A stretch of 64,000 bases of DNA from an uncultured Gammaproteobacteria bacterium (lineage in GTDB: Bacteria; Patescibacteriota; Microgenomatia; UBA8517): contig CAZWNZ010000001.1 of NCBI GenBank assembly GCA_964635715.1, forward strand, positions 10,358-74,357, in the 5' to 3' direction. Both the position numbers and the translations under genes were made by a program. A model generated the notes under the pieces. The model was not told the DNA's origin, searched no databases, and saw only the letters and a program-made list of their open reading frames with translations. Positions 10,675 to 45,152 of the stretch are shown piece after piece (positions within the stretch are counted from its first letter, which is position 1; each line of letters begins with the position of its first letter).

Positions 10675-11490
10675 TTAAGCTTGTGCTTGTTCTTCAGTTT
10701 TGGCTGCTTCCGGTTTTGACTCTTCTTTAACCTCTTGTCCTTCACCTTTTACACCCTCTTCTGCCGGAGCTTCGCCTTCAACCACCTGTGCTATCACTTC
10801 TTTTTCAAGATCTTTCAAGCTACCTGATTTAATTCTTTTAATCGTTACCATGGATCCTGTGGTGCCGGGAATTTGTCCCGAAATTTCAATTGTATTTGTT
10901 TTTTCATCGACTGAAATTATGTGCAAATTTTTGATGGTAACAGTCTCTCCACCCATTCTTCCAGCCATTTTTTTGCCTTTATAGACTCTTCCCGGTGTCG
11001 TAGTCTGCCCGATTGATCCCGGAGCACGTTCACGATCGCTTTGTCCATGGGTTCTTGGCCCACCTCTAAAGTGCCATCTTTTGACAACTCCTGCAAAACC
11101 TTTCCCCTTAGAAGTTCCTGTGACGGCAACAATGTCTCCGCGCTTTAATACTTCGGCAGCATTGACAATATCTCCAACTTTAAGAGCGGAACCTGTTACG
11201 GATTCCGGTTCTTTCTCAAGCCTAACCTCTCTAAGATATCTCGGGAATGAATTTGGAATTTGGAATTTGGAATTTGGAATTTTTTTGAGGTGTCCTTGAA
11301 GGGGTTTTGAAGTATTTTTTGCAGGCCTATCTGAAAATCCGAGCTGAATTGCCCAGTATCCGTCGCGTTCCTCTTTTTTAATTTGTGTCACGACACAAGG
11401 GCCCGCAATTACTTTTGTAACGGGAATCCTAAAACCTTGAACAAAGGTTTGTGAACATATTCCTTTCGATCCTAAAATAGTATTAATCAT
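10675..11490 (-). CDS. rplC: 50S ribosomal protein L3 with loop insertion encoded by a heptanucleotide repeat and an acidic C-terminal tail
   Basis: TGTSKGKGFAGVVKRWHFRGGPRTHGQS...APGSIGQTTTPGRVYKGKKMAGRMG L3 core. Insertion KIPNSKFQIPNSFPRY lies in the loop equivalent to E. coli AGVEAGRGLWEF. Confidence 0.92.
   Translation of the reverse strand: MINTILGSKGICSQTFVQGFRIPVTKVIAGPCVVTQIKKEERDGYWAIQLGFSDRPAKNTSKPLQGHLKKIPNSKFQIPNSFPRYLREVRLEKEPESVTGSALKVGDIVNAAEVLKRGDIVAVTGTSKGKGFAGVVKRWHFRGGPRTHGQSDRERAPGSIGQTTTPGRVYKGKKMAGRMGGETVTIKNLHIISVDEKTNTIEISGQIPGTTGSMVTIKRIKSGSLKDLEKEVIAQVVEGEAPAEEGVKGEGQEVKEESKPEAAKTEEQAQA
11251..11282. repeat. (atttgga)x4.5 heptanucleotide microsatellite inside the rplC coding sequence
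   Basis: atttggaatttggaatttggaatttggaattt encodes IPNSKFQIPNS on the minus strand. Confidence 0.85.
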
Positions 11491-11540
11491 TTTGGTTTTG
11501 GAGCCCGTTAGATGTGAACACTATCTAATGGGCCATTAAA

Positions 11541-11570
11541 CAACAAAAAAGCGCCTTTGCCAGGCGCTTC
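11541..11570 (-). terminator. rho-independent terminator downstream of the membrane-protein gene 11675-12664
   Basis: Minus-strand reading aagcgcc tggcaa aggcgct followed by tttttt (plus aaaaaa at 11544-11549). Confidence 0.6.
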
Positions 11571-11674
11571 CCCTGAAGCCATCCTTTCAAAGACTCTTAA
11601 TCGTGGCTAGTGTTTATCATAACCACTATCATGTTATGAGGGGAATTATATCAGAACTTCTTGAGCTCCGCAAG

Positions 11675-12664
11675 CTAAATTGCAACAATGATGGTTGAAA
11701 TCACAATGAGAAGAACAACCGGAATTGTTTTTTTGATATTTTTATAGAATATTAGCCAAAAAATAGGCACAATTGGTGCTAAATACCTGCCTAAATTTTC
11801 CAAAAAAGGAACAAGATTGATACCAAGCGTAAAAATATAAAAAGCAGTAATAATCCAAAATTCCAAGCCACGGGATTTGAGAGCCTTCCAATATAAACAA
11901 ATATAAAAAGTAATGTAAAAAAAACCCGATAGCAAAATTCTGTACCAATGCCACCTTGCAGCTCTTATAAGATCGTAGAAAAGCTGTCCCATCCCAAAGC
12001 TAATTCTTGAAGGATGCAGCGCCTCGTAAGTAAAGAGCTGATAAAAAGGATTTTTTATTCCGAAAAAATACACGTTATAGATCACTAAAAGCACAACCGG
12101 AATCAAAAAATATGGTAGGTTAAGAACAGCCTTTTTAATTTTTTTTGTCATGATCATATAAAACACCATGCCAGCAAATATGGCTATTCCTGCAATTCTG
12201 AAAGTAACCGAGATACCCAAGACCAGAAACGCCCAACGAAATAAATCTTTTTTATAGAAATAAATTGCAAGAAGCATCAAAAATACAAAAGGCATCTCGG
12301 TATCAATTAGGGAAGACAAATTGAGTAATATCGGTGGAAAAATTAGTGGCAAAAAACTATATTTTGAACCCGTTAATTTATAGAGCAAAACATAGGATCC
12401 GATTAAAGACAATATTACAACTACATAACCTGCCAGAAATGAATTTCCTGTTATAAAATGAAGCAAATAAATGACAATTGGAAGCCCGGGCAAAAGGCGC
12501 GATTCAAAAAATGAAATTTTTCCAACATTTAAAGGAAGTGTCTCCGAATAACCAACATAGTTATCTTGCTGAACAATCCCATTATTAAATCTAATAAATG
12601 CCAAAAACACCGATATTATTACGCAAAGAATAAACAATTTATGTTTGTATATTTTTGTAAGCAT
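11675..12664 (-). CDS. polytopic membrane protein, putative glycosyltransferase/polymerase (GT-C, EpsG or Wzy-like fold); inserted between rpsJ and rplC
   Basis: About 10 predicted TM helices; aromatic and Pro-rich loops (FESRLLPGLPIVIY...). No soluble domain. Adjacent to a sugar-nucleotide epimerase. Confidence 0.35.
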   Translation of the reverse strand: MLTKIYKHKLFILCVIISVFLAFIRFNNGIVQQDNYVGYSETLPLNVGKISFFESRLLPGLPIVIYLLHFITGNSFLAGYVVVILSLIGSYVLLYKLTGSKYSFLPLIFPPILLNLSSLIDTEMPFVFLMLLAIYFYKKDLFRWAFLVLGISVTFRIAGIAIFAGMVFYMIMTKKIKKAVLNLPYFLIPVVLLVIYNVYFFGIKNPFYQLFTYEALHPSRISFGMGQLFYDLIRAARWHWYRILLSGFFYITFYICLYWKALKSRGLEFWIITAFYIFTLGINLVPFLENLGRYLAPIVPIFWLIFYKNIKKTIPVVLLIVISTIIVAI

Positions 12665-12690
12665 TCGGAAGTATTATACTCTGAAACAAC

Positions 12691-13566
12691 ATGATACTTG
12701 TCACCGGTTCTTCTGGATTTATCGGCAGTAAACTTTTACCCCTTATTAGAAAGAAATATCCAAAAGAAGTTGTTACGGTTTTGAACAAAAATAATTGCAA
12801 TTTAGTAACCGGTCGGGGGCTATCGAAGCTTTCGGGAAAACCAAAAATAGTCTTTCATCTTGCTGCAACAACTGACACATCCAAAAGAGATCAGAGATGT
12901 AACGATATTGGAACCAAAAACCTTTTGAAGGCACTTCCAAGCCTCGGTCCAAAAACGCATTTTATATATACAAGCTCTCAAGTTGTATATTCGGGGAGAA
13001 GCGACACCGGAAAATTAATCACTTCAAAAACAGCTACTGCCACGAATAACAAGTACGGCAAAACTAAACTCATGGCAGAAAAAATTCTTCTTAGGGCCGC
13101 TAAAGAAAAAGGATTCAAACTGACGATAATAAGACTTCCAACTGTTTGGGGAGAAAATCCCAGAAAAAATGCTTTTTTGAATTTTTTGAGAAAACTTACT
13201 AAAAAGAATTCTATATTTTCAAGATTTGACTGGCCGGGCAAAGTTGCTCTTGTCTATGTTGAGGACGCAGTAAAATATATACTTAAGGCGGGGGAAATGC
13301 ATCCACAAACCATTTCTATAGCCGTAGAAAATCTAACTCTTGCCCAAATTTTTGAAAAAAATTACATAAATCAAGGTAAAATTTATAAGCAAATTAAGGT
13401 TCCGAACTTTGTTTGGAGCTTAGCTAGATTCTTAAGACCGTATTTAAAATATTTTGAATTTATTCTTCCAACAAGTCTTTTTAATTATCTTTGGAGAACA
13501 TCAATAATTGTGGATAGTCCCCTTGCCTGCAAGGTAAACATAAAAGGTAAAAAATTTGCCGGATAA
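12691..13566 (+). CDS. NAD-dependent epimerase/dehydratase (extended SDR family)
   Basis: N-terminal Rossmann motif MILVTGSSGFIGSKL; about 290 aa, typical of UDP-sugar epimerases and dehydratases. Confidence 0.7.
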   Translation: MILVTGSSGFIGSKLLPLIRKKYPKEVVTVLNKNNCNLVTGRGLSKLSGKPKIVFHLAATTDTSKRDQRCNDIGTKNLLKALPSLGPKTHFIYTSSQVVYSGRSDTGKLITSKTATATNNKYGKTKLMAEKILLRAAKEKGFKLTIIRLPTVWGENPRKNAFLNFLRKLTKKNSIFSRFDWPGKVALVYVEDAVKYILKAGEMHPQTISIAVENLTLAQIFEKNYINQGKIYKQIKVPNFVWSLARFLRPYLKYFEFILPTSLFNYLWRTSIIVDSPLACKVNIKGKKFAG

Positions 13567-13705
13567 TTGGTTACGGCTACCAGGAATGGGTTTTGCACCC
13601 ATTGGATTGTTAAAATGTTTTATTGTTAAATGGTTGTATGGGTAAATATCTGAAACTAAATGATATTAGCTCCTACAAAAAGGCGTTTACTTTATCAAAT
13701 TATGT

Positions 13706-13930
13706 ATGGAATATTGTAGACAAATGGAATTTCCTAGCAAAAAAGATAAGATTAACTTTTATCGTATGAGTAGGGGTTCAACTTTGGAATGTCTTGACTG
13801 GACTCAAAAGGCATATGTTAGGAAACTGATTACCAAATCTGAATATAAAAACATCATGTCAGATTTAAAAAGCATGCCCCTAGAAATTAATCAACTAATT
13901 AAATTCACGAATTTGAAGCTAAAAGAATAG
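13706..13930 (+). pseudogene. four-helix-bundle protein (TIGR02436 / '23S rRNA intervening-sequence protein' family), C-terminal fragment only
   Basis: EYCRQMEFPSKKDKINFYRMSRGSTLECLDWTQKAYVRKLI...EINQLIKF matches the family C-terminal half (AEGxxRxSxKEFxxFLxIARGSxxEL...). The N-terminal ~50 aa are missing, and an out-of-frame remnant (KKAFTLSNYVWNIVDKWNFLAKK) lies upstream. Confidence 0.45.
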
Positions 13931-13965
13931 CAATTTGACAATTTAACAATACAACAATTGAGATC

Positions 13966-14274
13966 TTACATCTTAATCTCAATGGAGACACCTGCCGGGA
14001 GGTCCATGTTTCCAAGAGAATCCACCGTACGGGGAGAGGGATCGATAATATCAATTAAACGTTTGTGAACTAAAATTTCAAAGTGTTCTTGGGCATCTTT
14101 GTCCGTAAAAGGAGACTCTTTAACAGCCATCATGGATCTTTTTGTGGGGAGAGGAATGGGGCCGATTATTTTTGCACCAGTGGCTAGAGCGGTATCAACA
14201 ATTTTTGCTGCCGCCTCATCTACTACTCTATGATCGTAGCTTTTGAGCTTTACTCTAAGTCTTGAGCTTGCCAT
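13966..14274 (-). CDS. rpsJ: 30S ribosomal protein S10
   Basis: RLRVKLKSYDHRVVDEAAAKIVDTALATGAKIIGPIPLPTK...; immediately downstream of tuf. Confidence 0.94.
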   Translation of the reverse strand: MASSRLRVKLKSYDHRVVDEAAAKIVDTALATGAKIIGPIPLPTKRSMMAVKESPFTDKDAQEHFEILVHKRLIDIIDPSPRTVDSLGNMDLPAGVSIEIKM

Positions 14275-15639: not shown

Positions 15640-17808
15640 TTACCCTCTTGGCATTTCAACCTTACCGCTTTTTGCCACAACTTGGGCCGTAATGTGGCTG
15701 GGAACTATATCATAATGCGATGGTTCGACATAAGCCCTGGCTCTACCTTGAGTTAAGGACCTAAGCTTGGTGGCATATCCTGAAAGTTCGGCTAAAGGTG
15801 CCTGGGCATAAATTACAGTCTCGCCTGCTTTCTCTTCTGAGCCGGAAACCTGCGCACGTTTACTGGAAAGGTCTCCTATTACATCTCCCATATATTCACC
15901 GGGTGTAAAGACCTCAACTTTCATAATAGGTTCAAGAAGGGTCGGGTTACTGTGTTTAAATGCATCCTCAAGAGCCATTGACCCTGCAATTTTGAAAGCC
16001 ATTTCAGAAGAATCAACCTCATGGTAACTTCCGTCATAAACAACAACCCTCATGTCAACCATCGGGAATCCTGCCATAACTCCGTTCTCCATTTTTTCAA
16101 CAATCCCTTTCTCAATAGCCGGAACATATTCTGACGGAATAGCCCCACCTTTGATTTCGCTTTTGAATTCAAATCCCTCACCGCGTCCGAGAGGCTCAAG
16201 TCTAAGCAAACAGTGTCCATATTGCCCGCGACCACCTGTCTGCCTGATGTATTTTCCCTCACCTTGTCCGATCTTACCAATAGTCTCTTTATAGGCAACC
16301 TGGGGTGCACCTGTACTGGCAATAACATTAAATTCTCTTTTCATACGATCTACCAGTACTTCAAGCTGAAGTTCTCCCATACCGCTAATAATGGTTTGTC
16401 CGGTTTCGGGGTTGCTTTTGATCCTAAACGTCGGATCCTCATCCGAAAGTTTATTTAAAGCTATTCCCATTTTTTCCTGATCAATCTTAGTGGCAGGTTC
16501 AATCGCCAAAGAAATAACAGGTTCCGGGAAATTAATTGATTCAAGAATAATCGGATGAGTAGAATCACAAATCGTATCACCGGTTGAAGTGTCTTTTGTT
16601 CCCACAACTGCTACAATTTCACCGGCAAATGCTTCTTCAATAAGTTCTCTTTGGTCTGCATGAAGCAAAACCAGCTTGCCGATTCTCTCGTTTTTTTGAT
16701 TTGAAGTGTTGTAAACCTCTTGTCCGGTTTTAATTGATCCTGAATAAACTCTGACATAAACCAAACGTCCGACGTGAGGATCTGTCATTACTTTAAAAGC
16801 AAGGGCACTCATCGGAGCTTCGTTTTTCCTGTCACGCGTTTCCTCAGTGCCCGTCTTTGGGTTAGTACCGACAACGGGAGGCAAGTCGGTAGGAGACGGC
16901 AAATATTCGACTACACCATTCAAAAGAAGCTGGCTTTCAGCCGTACGATTATCACCGCCAAACACCGGGAAGAATTTTCCGGTTATAACTCCTTTTCTAA
17001 TCGCTCTTTTAATAACTGACTCATCCGGTTCTTTTCCTTCAAGGTATAGATTCAGGGCTTCATCATCAAACTCGGAGACTTTCTCTATTAGCTCGGTTCT
17101 GTATTTCTTAGCCATATCAACTAAATCTGCCGGAATTTCCTCTTCGACCAAATCATGATCTTCTACCGCTTTGTACGTAAAAGCCTTCATTTTTATAAGA
17201 TCTACCACTCCCCTATGTTCATGCTCGAGTCCGATTGGAATTATGATCGGTGAAGCATTGGCTTTGAGTCTTTCACGAATTGACTTGATTGCAGATTCGA
17301 AATCTGCACCAATTAAATTTAACTTATTAAGAACACAAATTCTCGGAACATTGTATTTGTCAGCCTGTCTCCAAACCGTTTCGGATTGACTTTCAACTCC
17401 AGTTCTGCCGTCAAAGACCATAACAGCTCCATCCAAAACTCTCAAAGATCGCTCAACCTCTGCTGTAAAGTCGATGTGGCCGGGGGTGTCGATAATATTA
17501 ATTCTGTAATGCCCGGCCTCAACTGAAGTACTTTCTTTAATATCCCAAAAAGCAGTGATAGCAGCCGAAACAATTGTTATTCCACGTTCCCGCTCTTGAG
17601 CCATCCAATCCGTAACAGTTGTTCCTTCATCAACTGAACCCAATTTATAAGTGCGCCCTGTTTCAAAAAGAAGACGTTCTGTAGTTGTAGTTTTGCCGGC
17701 ATCGATATGGGCAATAATTCCAATGTTTCTAATTTTTTCATAGGAAACATTGCGATCTTTTGTCGCAGTAATTACTATACTAGCCTTTTTCTTTGCTACT
17801 TCTGCCAT
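15640..17808 (-). CDS. fusA: elongation factor G
   Basis: AHIDAGKTTTTERLLF...; 722 aa; str-operon position. Confidence 0.97.
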   Translation of the reverse strand: MAEVAKKKASIVITATKDRNVSYEKIRNIGIIAHIDAGKTTTTERLLFETGRTYKLGSVDEGTTVTDWMAQERERGITIVSAAITAFWDIKESTSVEAGHYRINIIDTPGHIDFTAEVERSLRVLDGAVMVFDGRTGVESQSETVWRQADKYNVPRICVLNKLNLIGADFESAIKSIRERLKANASPIIIPIGLEHEHRGVVDLIKMKAFTYKAVEDHDLVEEEIPADLVDMAKKYRTELIEKVSEFDDEALNLYLEGKEPDESVIKRAIRKGVITGKFFPVFGGDNRTAESQLLLNGVVEYLPSPTDLPPVVGTNPKTGTEETRDRKNEAPMSALAFKVMTDPHVGRLVYVRVYSGSIKTGQEVYNTSNQKNERIGKLVLLHADQRELIEEAFAGEIVAVVGTKDTSTGDTICDSTHPIILESINFPEPVISLAIEPATKIDQEKMGIALNKLSDEDPTFRIKSNPETGQTIISGMGELQLEVLVDRMKREFNVIASTGAPQVAYKETIGKIGQGEGKYIRQTGGRGQYGHCLLRLEPLGRGEGFEFKSEIKGGAIPSEYVPAIEKGIVEKMENGVMAGFPMVDMRVVVYDGSYHEVDSSEMAFKIAGSMALEDAFKHSNPTLLEPIMKVEVFTPGEYMGDVIGDLSSKRAQVSGSEEKAGETVIYAQAPLAELSGYATKLRSLTQGRARAYVEPSHYDIVPSHITAQVVAKSGKVEMPRG

Positions 17809-17896
17809 ATCAGTTTGAATCTAGAATCTTGAATGTGGAATCTAGAGGACAAGAGTGATTTTAACAGGAGATTGAATCTAAATCAATAACAGATGA

Positions 17897-18330
17897 TTAA
17901 AATTTTCTATTTACTAGATGCCTATCTGTGTAAATAAGAACGTTTTGACCTTTGAAATTTAGATTATCTCTCTTTACTTTGAAACCTTGATTTTTTGCAT
18001 AATCAATTAGTGATTCTAACCAATTTACATTTGGTTTTTTAACTAAGGGTTCATCAATTACACAACAGGGTCAACCACGGTTACATCCCAGCCGTTTATA
18101 TTTAACAAAAGTGAAAGCAATCCTTTTCCACCACCAACATCTAAGGCTTTGGTGGGTTTGTATTTTTGGCTAAGCCACATCTGTAAAAGCTGAAAACGAA
18201 ACTTGTTGTTCAATCTTCGTTTTGTATTCATTAATCGGATTATACATTTTTTTAAATAATGAATTATATTATCTATTTTAATATTAATTAGTTCGATGGT
18301 TCGAACTATGGTACTATAAATATATGACAC
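17897..18330 (-). pseudogene. class I SAM-dependent methyltransferase remnant, frameshifted after motif I
   Basis: ORF 18058-18330 ends ...ALDVGGGKGLLSLLLNINGWDVTVVDPVV* (motif I). A second frame continues DEPLVKKPNVNWLESLIDYAKNQGFKVKRDNLNFKGQNVLIYTD... to a stop at 17897-17899. Confidence 0.45.
18289..18309. repeat. 21-bp direct repeat, 5' copy flanking TrpR-like gene 2 (8-4-8 dyad tagttcga-tggt-tcgaacta)
   Basis: tagttcgatggttcgaactat, identical to 18765-18785. Confidence 0.85.
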
Positions 18331-18767
18331 AAGTTTCTAGACATTTTATGAATCCTGATATTGAAAAGCGAGTTTATGAGGTATTTATAGAATCTGTTAA
18401 AAACACCAGAAATTCAAATGAAGTAATTGATTTTTTAAATGACTTACTTTCCCCTGTCGAAAAAATTATGATGGCAAAAAGAGTGGCCGTCGCATTTCTT
18501 TTACTTCAGGATAAATATACCTATGACCAAATTTCCAAAACCGTAAAGGTTAGTAGGGGTACAATTGCAAAAATTCATACCACTTTTGCTCTACAAGGAA
18601 AGGGGTATAGAAAAATTCTGGGAGATATTCTTAAAAGGAAAGTTGCGAAAATTGCATTATCGGAACTATTAGACGCGATAACTCTTCTTCCTCCAAAAGG
18701 TGCAAATCTTGGAGAATGGAAAAAGATGAAACGAAATGACAAATTAAAGAGAGAAAGTCCAATATAG
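18324..18767 (+). CDS. TrpR/YerC-like helix-turn-helix DNA-binding protein (paralogue 2 of 3)
   Basis: FLNDLLSPVEKIMMAKRVAVAFLLLQDKYTYDQISKTVKVSRGTIAKI (TrpR helix pattern). Confidence 0.6.
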   Translation: MTQVSRHFMNPDIEKRVYEVFIESVKNTRNSNEVIDFLNDLLSPVEKIMMAKRVAVAFLLLQDKYTYDQISKTVKVSRGTIAKIHTTFALQGKGYRKILGDILKRKVAKIALSELLDAITLLPPKGANLGEWKKMKRNDKLKRESPI

Positions 18768-18785
18768 TTCGATGGTTCGAACTAT
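18765..18785. repeat. 21-bp direct repeat, 3' copy flanking TrpR-like gene 2 (overlaps its TAG stop)
   Basis: tagttcgatggttcgaactat. Confidence 0.85.
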
Positions 18786-18884
18786 CGAACTACTTCGTGA
18801 GATAATCAACGATTAGATTAATTTAGTCTAATAAAAGAAACTATTAAGAAAATTACTTGAAGTCAATAGCAAAAAATGCCGATT

Positions 18885-19364
18885 CTACCAACGAAAATGA
18901 CTGAAGGCCTTATTTGCTTCTGCCACCCTTTCCATATCAGTTCTTTTCTTCACTGCCGCACCTTCGCCTTTTGCTGCATCCATTATTTCCGCTGCCAATT
19001 TTGCACCGTAAGTGTGAAATTCCGAGTTGGGTCGGGAATTAGCTGCAGCAACCAACCATCTAATAGCTAATGAGTCGCGTCTCACTCCGCGAACAGCCTG
19101 AGGAACCTGATATGCAGCACCACCGATTCTTCTTGGACGAACCTCCATAGTTGGTTTAATATTTTCCAGAGCCTGATTAAAAACTTTCAACGGATCACCA
19201 TCTGTTTTTTCTTTAATAATGTCGAATGCTTCGTAAACCTCATGTCTGGCCACTGATTTCTTACCATCAAACATACTCCTGTTAATAAGTTTAGTAACAA
19301 GCCTGCTACTGTAAAACGGATCAGGTTCTACGACTCTTACTTTAATTGCTCCTTTTCTTGCCAT
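18885..19364 (-). CDS. rpsG: 30S ribosomal protein S7
   Basis: S7 family (...MFDGKKSVARHEVYEAFD...AVRGVRRDSLAIRWLV...). Confidence 0.94.
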   Translation of the reverse strand: MARKGAIKVRVVEPDPFYSSRLVTKLINRSMFDGKKSVARHEVYEAFDIIKEKTDGDPLKVFNQALENIKPTMEVRPRRIGGAAYQVPQAVRGVRRDSLAIRWLVAAANSRPNSEFHTYGAKLAAEIMDAAKGEGAAVKKRTDMERVAEANKAFSHFRW

Positions 19365-28277: not shown

Positions 28278-28423
28278 TCTAATAAATTATACCATGAAGC
28301 GCTCTAGGTCAAGCTGATAAAACCTTTGGACACAAACCGAGCCCTAAACAGAAAATCATCAACACCAAAAAAGTGTGAATCAAATCTGCCTAGGGCTCGT
28401 AAAACTATTCAAATCAAAGAGAG

Positions 28424-29234: not shown

Positions 29235-29612
29235 TTACGTAACACTAGTACACTTTGAGGATTGGCGGCTGGGTCGAAAATTATTTTTTTCAAATTTTTT
29301 ACTCCAAATAATACTAACCTCAACAAACCCTTTATTTATTAAATCTTGAGGTAAATTTTTAAAAGGACAACTACCAGCTCTCTCTAATTCACCAATAATC
29401 TTTCTTGCAATAGTAACTTGATTTTCGGTTGATTTTAAAACAGTGGCCATTTCACTAAGATTCAGGCCGGGAATACGCCTATGTTCCCAAAAATGATTTA
29501 CTAAATGAGCCGCACCATTTATATCCATTAATTGATTTTCCGGAAGGTCTTTAAGAAATGAGAGATCGAGTTCTTGTCTGGAATTGTCAGTTTCTTTTGA
29601 TTGCTCTACCAT
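29235..29612 (-). CDS. hypothetical protein, possible helix-turn-helix
   Basis: LNLSEMATVLKSTENQVTIARKIIGELERAG resembles an HTH; no confident family assignment. Confidence 0.3.
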   Translation of the reverse strand: MVEQSKETDNSRQELDLSFLKDLPENQLMDINGAAHLVNHFWEHRRIPGLNLSEMATVLKSTENQVTIARKIIGELERAGSCPFKNLPQDLINKGFVEVSIIWSKKFEKNNFRPSRQSSKCTSVT

Positions 29613-45058: not shown

Positions 45059-45152
45059 TTTAGTGTCATGAGAATCAATGTAAGGCTATTTCAAGCCAAA
45101 CTTTGATTTCATCTTTGTGTATTATATCAGGCTTCGAATCAAAACGCAAAGG

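Follow-up and report, generated by a model that had tools for sequence, protein, structure and literature searches.

An old operon boundary between rpsJ and rplC in a Woesebacteria lineage, carrying a predicted GT-C glycosyltransferase gene and an attenuator-like rplC leader

The subject of this study is the junction between rpsJ, encoding ribosomal protein S10, and rplC, encoding L3, in a 64,000-nt stretch of DNA (NCBI GenBank assembly GCA_964635715.1, contig CAZWNZ010000001.1, positions 10,358 to 74,357 of the forward strand; hereafter the window, with positions counted from its first letter) from a Woesebacteria (Microgenomates) lineage of the candidate phyla radiation (CPR). In this lineage the classical S10 operon is split at rpsJ/rplC into two transcription units. 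Comparison of related loci indicates that the gene lying at the split, which encodes a predicted membrane glycosyltransferase and is usually accompanied by a sugar epimerase gene, is an old lineage trait at an operon boundary and not a fresh insertion, and conservation shows that rplC and the genes following it are driven by a predicted extended -10 promoter of their own, which abuts the glycosyltransferase stop codon and is followed by a leader of ~150 nt. This leader looks like a transcription attenuator and is a candidate for a new one. The reading preferred here, with a probability of about 0.7, is that of an ancient insertion, i.e., cargo at an operon boundary next to an rplC promoter and an attenuator-like leader, without a functional link to the ribosome.

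The gap between rpsJ and rplC

In the window, rpsJ (13966..14274, minus strand; PF00338, 6.4e-30; NF001861, 5.5e-39) closes a tuf-rpsJ unit, and rplC (10675..11490, minus strand; TIGR03625, L3_bact, 5.7e-65) opens the unit rplC-rplD-rplW-rplB and onward. The open reading frame (ORF) listing and hidden Markov model (HMM) scans place the two genes 2475 nt apart (11491-13965) with three features between them. A scan of genome contigs with S10 returned, among the matches listed, mostly Actinobacteria plus about 10 CPR relatives; in the 60-odd non-CPR loci, which were used as a control, the rpsJ-rplC gap is only 17-140 nt, and the 2.4-kb gap is therefore genuinely unusual. The original prediction, a note made from the window sequence before this analysis, had described rpsJ and rplC as separated by a divergent gene pair and a truncated gene, an arrangement borne out by the ORF listing, the HMM scans and the junctions of an independent assembly (see below). 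Its gene identities, i.e., a glycosyltransferase-like membrane protein, an NAD-dependent epimerase and a truncated four-helix-bundle gene, likewise hold on the HMM scans and on an AlphaFold 2 (AF2) model.

It is next to inconceivable that this arrangement is an assembly chimera in which unrelated pieces were wrongly joined between rpsJ and rplC, a flaw against which the original prediction had cautioned and for which no evidence was found. The Logan contig L001, which is an independent assembly, is 100% identical to the window over the epimerase / membrane gene / rplC junctions, and three contigs from relatives (L003, L097 and L116) span the rpsJ-epimerase junction. In line with this, the same gene order recurs in ENA, JGI and NCBI assemblies.

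Age of the arrangement

A search with the membrane protein returned 82 homologues at 30-100% identity, several of them labelled Microgenomates or Candidatus Woesebacteria. Those at 42-72% identity with readable flanks all lie directly after rpsJ and upstream of rplC (the latter position being scored only where the downstream flank is present on the contig), with L007 (53%) as the sole exception. The order rpsJ-membrane gene-rplC is thereby found in >25 independent Woesebacteria/Microgenomates assemblies (L002, L004-6, L009, L094-L107, L116, L118, L120-L124). The epimerase is present in most of these junction-sited loci (L002, L004-6, L094-L103, L105, L116, L118, L121 and L123), where the membrane gene is co-directional with rpsJ and the divergent epimerase lies between the two; in the loci that lack it (L009/L107, L120, L122 and L124), the membrane gene follows rpsJ at -4 to 35 nt. 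Homologues at <=41% identity, together with L007, occupy other genome sites, often beside an epimerase and GT2 enzymes. In assembly GCA_040961635.1, the gene pair is sited away from the junction. Across the clade that keeps the junction, protein identity is 89-96% for S10, 90-96% for EF-Tu, about 68-75% for L3 and 56-71% for L4, and the genes are intact throughout.

The remaining cargo varies from locus to locus. Between rpsJ and the epimerase, L101 and L102 carry a histidine phosphatase, L103 and L121 a short ORF, and the window the remnant of a four-helix-bundle gene. Between the membrane gene and rplC the window has no further gene; an ~74-aa protein is encoded there in L094, L097, L101 and L004-6, a second GT-C gene (GT87) in L004-6 and L121, and other ORFs in L099 and L106. 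The histidine phosphatase is alpha-ribazole-phosphatase-like (3522-4067 in L101, 3572-4117 in L102). The ~74-aa protein is conserved and directly precedes the rplC promoter in L004/L005/L006/L118/L105 (8159-8383 in L004), L101 (6019-6243), L094 (6033-6266) and L097 (2117-2341); it has the motif ...LSWEKYLGCDSEVA..AY.IY..R...G..G..E.DW.KAE..V..., has no NCBIfam match and is absent from the window.

These comparisons bear on the proposal of the original prediction that a glycan-modification mini-module was newly acquired by horizontal transfer into the S10 operon of the window genome alone. Several features would fit such an event: the G+C content of the stretch is 0.31-0.38, against 0.40-0.45 for the flanking ribosomal genes; one edge of the stretch holds a gene remnant with imperfect inverted repeats; and elsewhere rpsJ-rplC adjacency is the rule. 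However, the same site, the same orientation and intact genes recur in the >25 independent assemblies over a clade whose depth is apparent from the divergence of the membrane protein (42-72% identity) and of L3, the four-helix-bundle remnant is the only part specific to the window genome, and a low G+C content is expected of a hydrophobic membrane protein in an AT-rich genome. A recent acquisition is thus very improbable. The original prediction had itself named lineage-wide conservation with intact genes as the outcome that would refute it, and the arrangement, kept in this way over a deep clade, is better seen as an old trait of that clade.

An operon boundary in related lineages

Relatives that lack the glycosyltransferase also carry genes at this junction: L011 has a 119-aa ORF, L016 an ATPase, and L012 a small membrane protein together with a TlyA-like rRNA methyltransferase. 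In all three, reading of the sequence finds a promoter of the TTGC..-N17-TGATATAAT type that is followed at 7-11 nt by a short ORF and, ahead of rplC, by a GC hairpin and U-run. Even where the rpsJ-rplC gap is only 90-195 nt (L015, L017 and L019) there is a terminator-like hairpin, accompanied in L015 and L017 by a -10-like box. Since glycosyltransferase-less relatives also have cargo, hairpins and promoters at this place, in this part of the CPR the rpsJ/rplC junction marks a boundary between operons, and tolerance of insertions is the simplest account of the varied cargo. The rplC promoter, which the original prediction had taken to be new, loses that status as well, given that relatives without the insertion also show a promoter and a terminator-like hairpin upstream of rplC.

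Three of these loci have further features. The TlyA-family rRNA methyltransferase of L012 (7690-8253) lacks the N-terminal domain, and the ATPase of L016 (4655-5902) is 415 aa long. The 141-nt rpsJ-rplC spacer of L015 (7306-7447), from another CPR genome, has a 12-codon ORF 6 nt past a TACAAT box, followed by the segments AGCCU / AGGCU / AGCCU / AGGCU and a U-run, laid out like a classical 1:2 / 2:3 / 3:4 attenuator.

Promoters at the junction and the question of functional coupling

The membrane gene and the epimerase are separated by a divergent intergenic region of 26 nt (12665..12690) with overlapping -10 boxes, namely TATAAT for the membrane gene (12678..12673, minus strand), 8 nt upstream of its ATG, and TATACT for the epimerase (12675-12680, plus strand), 10 nt upstream of its ATG. 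The box of the membrane gene is kept in relatives, including the off-operon locus L008, and reads TGCTATACT in the epimerase-less lineages. With a -10 box 8-10 nt upstream of each ATG, the two genes of the proposed mini-module are not one co-transcribed unit.

Retention of the membrane gene could nonetheless reflect a functional coupling, in which the glycosyltransferase is kept in the ribosomal cluster to track ribosome synthesis or to act on a target in translation or secretion. Consistent with such a role, the gene has been strictly retained beside rpsJ over a long evolutionary span, and its spacing from rpsJ in some lineages, a 4-nt overlap or a gap of 15-35 nt, suggests co-transcription. 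On the other hand, the gene has its own conserved -10 box, its homologues function at other genome sites (all those at <=41% identity, and L007 at 53%), sister lineages have unrelated cargo in this position, and the retention may reflect a general rigidity of the gene cluster. Coupling is accordingly judged improbable; a functional tie of the glycosyltransferase to the ribosomal genes is possible but not needed, because the gene has its own -10 box and off-operon homologues and because the window has a further insertion of ~1 kb between rpsG and fusA.

The original prediction had also reasoned that rplC must be transcribed from a promoter within 11491-11674. When the 200 nt upstream of rplC were aligned for all loci, a conserved extended -10 promoter of the sigma-70 type was predicted in that interval, at 11645..11673 (minus strand), consisting of TTGCGG-N17-TATAAT with TG at spacer positions 15-16. 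The -35 box TTGCGG (11673..11668) begins 1 nt past the stop codon of the membrane gene, and the extended -10 element TGATATAAT occupies 11653..11645. Among the 15 distinct leaders used for this count, TGnTATAAT is invariant, with TTGC at a fixed spacing, in 15/15. A scan for consensus sigma-70 promoters missed this promoter, whose -35 box matches 3/6 consensus positions. Promoter and leader are always attached to rplC, whichever gene lies upstream.

Two more perfect extended -10 boxes occur in the window, TGATATAAT at 45121-45129(-) and TGGTATAAT at 28286-28294(-). They lie about 220-425 nt upstream of the next same-strand ORF of >=90 aa, have no Rfam match, and could mark long leaders or unannotated small genes or RNAs.

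The structured leader of rplC

About 75 nt downstream of the rplC promoter lies a terminator-like hairpin (11538..11573, minus strand; placed at 11573..11545 by a first scan), with the stem AAGCGCC/GGCGCUU at 11569-11549 followed by UUUUUUGUUGUUU. Because it is downstream of this promoter, the hairpin is counted with the rplC leader and is not the membrane gene's alone, and it stays with rplC where other genes part the membrane gene from rplC. The original prediction had assigned the membrane gene a rho-independent terminator of its own; the hairpin and its U-run are indeed there, but they belong to the rplC leader and are not specific to that gene.

The same leader can form other structures on the minus strand. 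A long alternative ('antiterminator') helix (11553..11594) pairs GUCUUUGAAAGG (11594-11583) with CCUGGCAAAGGC (11564-11553) and encloses a small apical hairpin (11579-11566). It draws on both arms of the GCGCC/GGCGC terminator stem, namely on the final Cs of the 5' one and the initial GGC of the 3' one, so that long helix and terminator are mutually exclusive. Upstream of it is the hairpin P1 (11603..11626; GUGGUUA ... UAGCCAC), with 5 invariant pairs, no covariation and two poorly kept outer pairs. Downstream is the hairpin P3 (11495..11541), with an inner stem GCCC/GGGC and an outer stem GUUU/AAAC, which sequesters the A-rich stretch just before the rplC AUG.

Folding and covariation both point to a structured RNA. 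The 151-nt leader of the window folds to -46.5 kcal/mol (z = -3.74), and its minimum free energy structure and its centroid differ in exactly one region, the former having the alternative form and the latter the terminator form; under forced folding, the energies of the two conformers differ in most sequences by no more than about 4 kcal/mol. RNAalifold, run on a plain MAFFT alignment of the 15 distinct leaders, independently recovers P1, the long helix, with the consensus (G)UCUUYR...AGG joined to CCU...YRAAGG(C), and P3. Compensatory changes are found at 4 pairs of the long helix, in which 91-92% of cells are paired, and at 3-4 pairs of the inner stem of P3. The covariation score is 0.261-0.264, compared with 0.128-0.130 for shuffles (0/500 reach the observed value) and at most 0.086 for slid controls; a second alignment of 18 leaders made through a covariance model, including four fetched later, gave the same figures. 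The terminator core GCGCC/GGCGC is invariant. P3 is missing in the L107/L009 sub-lineage, where a check of the sequences showed that the covariance model had forced it into the rplC coding sequence.

Several other assignments were set aside. A helix closing the 5' and 3' ends (AUAACA with UGUUUAAU) shows inconsistent covariation. A free-standing small RNA gene, made up of a promoter, an RNA of ~90 nt and a terminator, does not fit an element that is always at a fixed short distance from rplC and runs on into P3 and the start region. Weak covariance-model matches in L054, L113 and L016 were judged spurious. Against Rfam (Rfam 15), the 64-kb window gave no match at the gathering threshold, and a permissive scan of 11400-11750 gave noise only.

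A candidate leader peptide

The leader contains a candidate upstream ORF (uORF) encoding MIVVMINTSHD and a stop (11597..11632, minus strand), which begins with an ATG 12 nt past the -10 hexamer, encloses P1 and ends 2 nt short of the alternative helix's 5' strand. A uORF of 11-14 codons is kept in 19/19 distinct leaders, with its ATG 12-16 nt past the -10 hexamer and the pattern M(x)VV-hydrophobic-x-x-x-S-H-x(x)-stop; in these 19 leaders the ORF either stops 0-3 nt short of the long helix's 5' strand or extends into it. Both indels inside the uORF are of 3 nt and so preserve the frame, as does a displacement of the start codon, again by exactly 3 nt, seen in some lineages. Additionally, codon 4 (Val4) varies among GTT, GTC and GTA, i.e., only synonymously, though this breaks a base pair of P1.

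The context of the window is favorable to translation so close to a 5' end. Shine-Dalgarno sequences were seen upstream of none of its ~58 listed genes, the upstream regions being A/T-rich, and a -10-like box lies 8-10 nt before the ATG of several real genes, namely tuf, the epimerase, the membrane gene and the ORF at 29235. Such a spacing at several operon-leading genes points to near-leaderless mRNAs being common in the source organism. Because of these two features, a 5'-proximal uORF is plausible. As judged from its sequence, the odds that the uORF is translated are about even.

A possible attenuation mechanism

By the geometry of the leader, transcripts would start near 11638(-). If the long helix formed, RNA polymerase would read through into rplC-rplD-rplW-rplB and the following genes; if the GC hairpin formed instead, transcription would stop at the U-run near 11540. 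The switch could be set by translation of the near-leaderless uORF, or by L4 or L3 binding to the leader, a protein-mediated route with precedents in the E. coli S10 leader and the B. subtilis rplJL leader. In a trp-like geometry, a ribosome that had reached the uORF stop would cover the long helix's 5' strand and so favor termination; on a ribosome-free uORF the long helix would form first and allow read-through. Free ribosomes would thereby exert a negative feedback. Transcripts arriving from the glycosyltransferase gene and from rpsJ would end at the GC hairpin too. It is a tentative proposal, less likely to be right than wrong, that the leader is such an undescribed attenuator gauging translation capacity, in which a ribosome at the uORF stop leads to the terminator, scarcity of ribosomes lets the operon of roughly 25 genes be read through, and the hairpin additionally ends the embedded glycosyltransferase transcript.

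A number of observations weigh against an attenuator. Transcription start, termination and read-through are all read from sequence. The terminator stem, being invariant, lies beyond what covariation can test, and its support comes from conservation and the U-run; the U-run itself is short or interrupted in 5/19 distinct leaders (L006, L094, L097, L104 and L107). The long helix ends 2-3 nt before the U-run and might itself terminate transcription rather than prevent termination. Searches with a covariance model of the leader gave no convincing further copy, either in the rest of the window or in the glycosyltransferase-less relatives, and the likeness of the more distant leaders comes from inspection by eye of their sequences. 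As for the uORF, a single one of such length is unremarkable on shuffling (P about 0.4-0.65 per sequence), and the codons it conserves, V-V and S-H, fall in the arms of P1, so that a constraint at the RNA level could mimic coding.

In an alternative reading, the element is a plain terminator, serving only to end the membrane-gene and rpsJ transcripts, next to a constitutive promoter; there is no regulation, and both the uORF and the alternative helix are incidental. An intrinsic terminator would account for the hairpin and its U-run, the absence of covariation in its stem agrees with this, and so does the fact that each uORF taken individually is not significant. However, the terminator lies downstream of the promoter and, if efficient and unregulated, would shut off the rplC operon, which is essential. 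Likewise, an alternative helix with 4 covarying pairs that overlaps both terminator arms, a P3 that covaries too, and an element that stays with rplC when other genes intervene are hard to regard as incidental, and absence of regulation is considered unlikely.

Comparison with known leaders

In E. coli, the leader of the S10 operon mediates transcription attenuation and translational repression by L4. The rplC leader resembles it in being ~150 nt long, in having a terminator hairpin and a U-run tens of nucleotides before the first start codon, and in forming a second structure over the initiation region. It differs in preceding rplC and not rpsJ, which is here transcribed with tuf, in having a conserved uORF, and in showing no similarity of sequence or structure in the Rfam scans.

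The rplJL leader of Bacillus subtilis forms an anti-antiterminator, an antiterminator and a terminator and encodes a leader peptide; its effector is L10(L12)4, and the peptide is thought to act against Rho (PMC4538822). Both this leader and that of rplC precede a ribosomal protein operon, form alternative helices including an intrinsic terminator, and contain a short leader ORF, which in B. subtilis influences expression. The operon and the structure are different, though, and in the window it is the stop of the uORF that abuts the strand of the alternative helix. Similar to trp-type attenuators and to the leaderless regulatory short ORFs of mycobacteria (bioRxiv 10.1101/834739), the rplC leader has a short ORF at or near the 5' end followed by mutually exclusive helices and a terminator, and ribosome position would select the helix that forms. 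Unlike in these systems, its uORF has no evident run of regulatory codons (only V-V and S-H are conserved), and the genes it would control encode ribosomal proteins and not amino-acid biosynthesis. In the literature on ribosomal leaders, only an archaeal L4 motif upstream of rplC and the Firmicutes S10 leader were found (PMC7247131). The former, L4-Archaeoglobi, is a candidate cis-regulatory RNA directly upstream of rplC-rplD-rplW-rplB (Eckert & Weinberg 2020, PMC7247131); it shares the position before rplC with the leader described here, but it is archaeal and has no match to the window in Rfam 15.

The membrane protein and its epimerase partner

The membrane gene (11675..12664, minus strand) encodes a polytopic membrane protein of 329 aa that is predicted, from its AF2 model and Foldseek comparison, to be a glycosyltransferase of the GT-C fold belonging to a small unclassified family. 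Alignment of the family reveals 21 invariant columns, including QQDNY after the first transmembrane helix, FPP and PFLEN.GRY. Within QQDNY, in the first extracytoplasmic loop just after that helix, D34 is invariant in 38 sequences; it appears to be the conserved acidic residue expected of GT-C enzymes, and its catalytic role is putative. The model built from the family alignment has about 11 helices (pLDDT 90.7, pTM 0.91), and each of its 24 best Foldseek matches in the PDB is a membrane protein of the GT-C fold (GT-C enzymes and a GPI-transamidase subunit), at a probability of 0.77-1.0 (1.00 for the top 17) and TMq of 0.39-0.57. ArnT, ALG12, STT3, ALG3 and PimE are the top matches (TM 0.5-0.57), and ALG9, ALG6, PMT and EmbB are also included.

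Sequence models place the protein less readily. The original prediction had recommended HMM searches with EpsG and GT-C Pfam models; these gave no Pfam match for the window protein, and no Pfam or NCBIfam model reached its cutoff. Among 38 family members, 12 have weak EpsG (PF14897) matches and 1 a match to PMT_2 (PF13231), and one family member is named 'RgtA/B/C/D-like' in UniRef. A family profile matched no solved chain in a search of PDB sequences, and hhalign against the neighboring GT87 protein gave a weak match (probability 17%). A profile search of 1.84 billion cluster representatives retrieved 59 at E <= 1e-30 and 591 at E <= 1e-3, and distant relatives of the protein match the Pfam models PIG-V (PF04188), GT87 (PF09594), PMT_2, Alg9-like and EpsG, with a best E of 4.6e-12. 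Membership of a named GT-C family (GT87/PF09594, PMT_2/PF13231, PIG-V/PF04188 or EpsG/PF14897) was rejected, the window protein being below every curated cutoff.

The likeness to the GT-C superfamily (ArnT/GT83, PimE/GT87, PIG-V/GT76, ALG3/9/12 and PMT) is thus one of predicted fold, first-loop acidic residue and distant Pfam relatives. Compared with known GT-C enzymes, the window protein has only 329 aa and no soluble outer domain; compared with known families, its own falls below model cutoffs, has no sequence match to solved chains and is small (the 59 representatives above). On the modelled structure, the protein is best regarded as a member of a small, unclassified group within the GT-C superfamily, which would be new at the family level.

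The epimerase gene (12691..13566, plus strand), divergent from the membrane gene, is intact and encodes an extended short-chain dehydrogenase/reductase (SDR), i.e., an NAD-dependent sugar epimerase/reductase of 291 aa (PF01370, 3.8e-25; 89.1 bits against a cutoff of 20.9), with the motifs GSSGFIG (Rossmann) and YGKTK (YxxxK). Among solved structures, dTDP-4-dehydrorhamnose reductases and other NDP-sugar SDRs come closest (E about 1e-7). As a named enzyme (GalE, RmlD, WbcJ or others) it satisfies no NCBIfam equivalog cutoff, the best being the WbcJ-type reductase with 56.5 against 500 bits. By analogy with GT-C systems, the SDR may make or reshape a sugar, which the GT-C partner would take from a polyprenyl-phosphate carrier and attach to a glycoconjugate of the cell surface, at the outer face of the membrane. 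The off-operon homologues likewise adjoin GT2 enzymes and an epimerase.

The four-helix-bundle remnant

Between the epimerase and rpsJ lies a decayed gene of the four-helix-bundle family, known as the '23S rRNA intervening sequence (IVS) protein' family (13623..13930, plus strand). Its C-terminal part is an ORF of 74 aa (13706-13930), and a possible N-terminal helix lies in another frame (13623-13769). The ORF matches TIGR02436 at 2.3e-8, over profile positions 50-107 of 109 only, and scores 29.8 bits against the Pfam model (PF05635), under the cutoff of 33.8 bits. Of the TIGR02436/PF05635 family, the C-terminal 55-60% of the profile is recognizable in the ORF, and the N-terminal part is missing or frameshifted. 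An intact gene of ~110 aa was rejected: conceptual repair with the N-terminal piece extends the match only to 41-107, and the N-terminal helices are not recovered. Because joining the frames still leaves the N-terminal part missing, the gene is, as far as its sequence goes, a remnant and not a working gene. Relatives have no four-helix-bundle gene in the same slot.

Imperfect inverted repeats surround the remnant (13602-13634 and 13928-13959), with arms of 27 nt (78% complementary) and 22 nt (86%). They bracket it almost exactly and recall the repeat-flanked intervening sequences in which the protein family was first found; the repeats are AT-rich, and chance is possible.

Other features of the ribosomal gene cluster

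The cluster of the window is broken a second time, between rpsG (18885-19364) and fusA (15640-17808), which are about 1.07 kb apart (17809-18884), compared with ~60-70 nt in L002 and L004. On the opposite strand this gap holds a Trp-repressor-like gene (18324-18767; PF01371, 9.7e-13), flanked by palindromic repeats of 28-33 nt (18286-18318 and 18763-18795), and it also contains a truncated methyltransferase fragment (18058-18330, minus strand). Three ribosomal proteins, L22 (8095-8613), L3 (10675-11490) and L4 (9973-10668), have long charged C-terminal extensions: the tail of L22 has ~60 Lys/Ser-rich residues, that of L3 has ~55 Glu/Ala/Lys-rich residues and is accompanied by the internal insertion KKIPNSKFQIPNSFPRY, and that of L4 is Lys-rich.

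Implications

The 'universal' linkage of rpsJ and rplC is stably broken in a whole CPR clade, where gene order at this point is a lineage marker and not a sign of recent transfer. The gene at the break belongs to what is predicted to be a compact, unclassified GT-C family with an SDR partner, in organisms whose cell-surface chemistry is essentially uncharted. The leader downstream of it, which heads the main ribosomal protein operon, is well conserved and supported by covariation and has no Rfam counterpart, is a concrete candidate for the control of ribosomal protein synthesis in ultra-small bacteria that lack Shine-Dalgarno sequences. If the attenuation mechanism outlined above is true, ribosome availability in CPR bacteria would feed back directly on the synthesis of ribosomal proteins.

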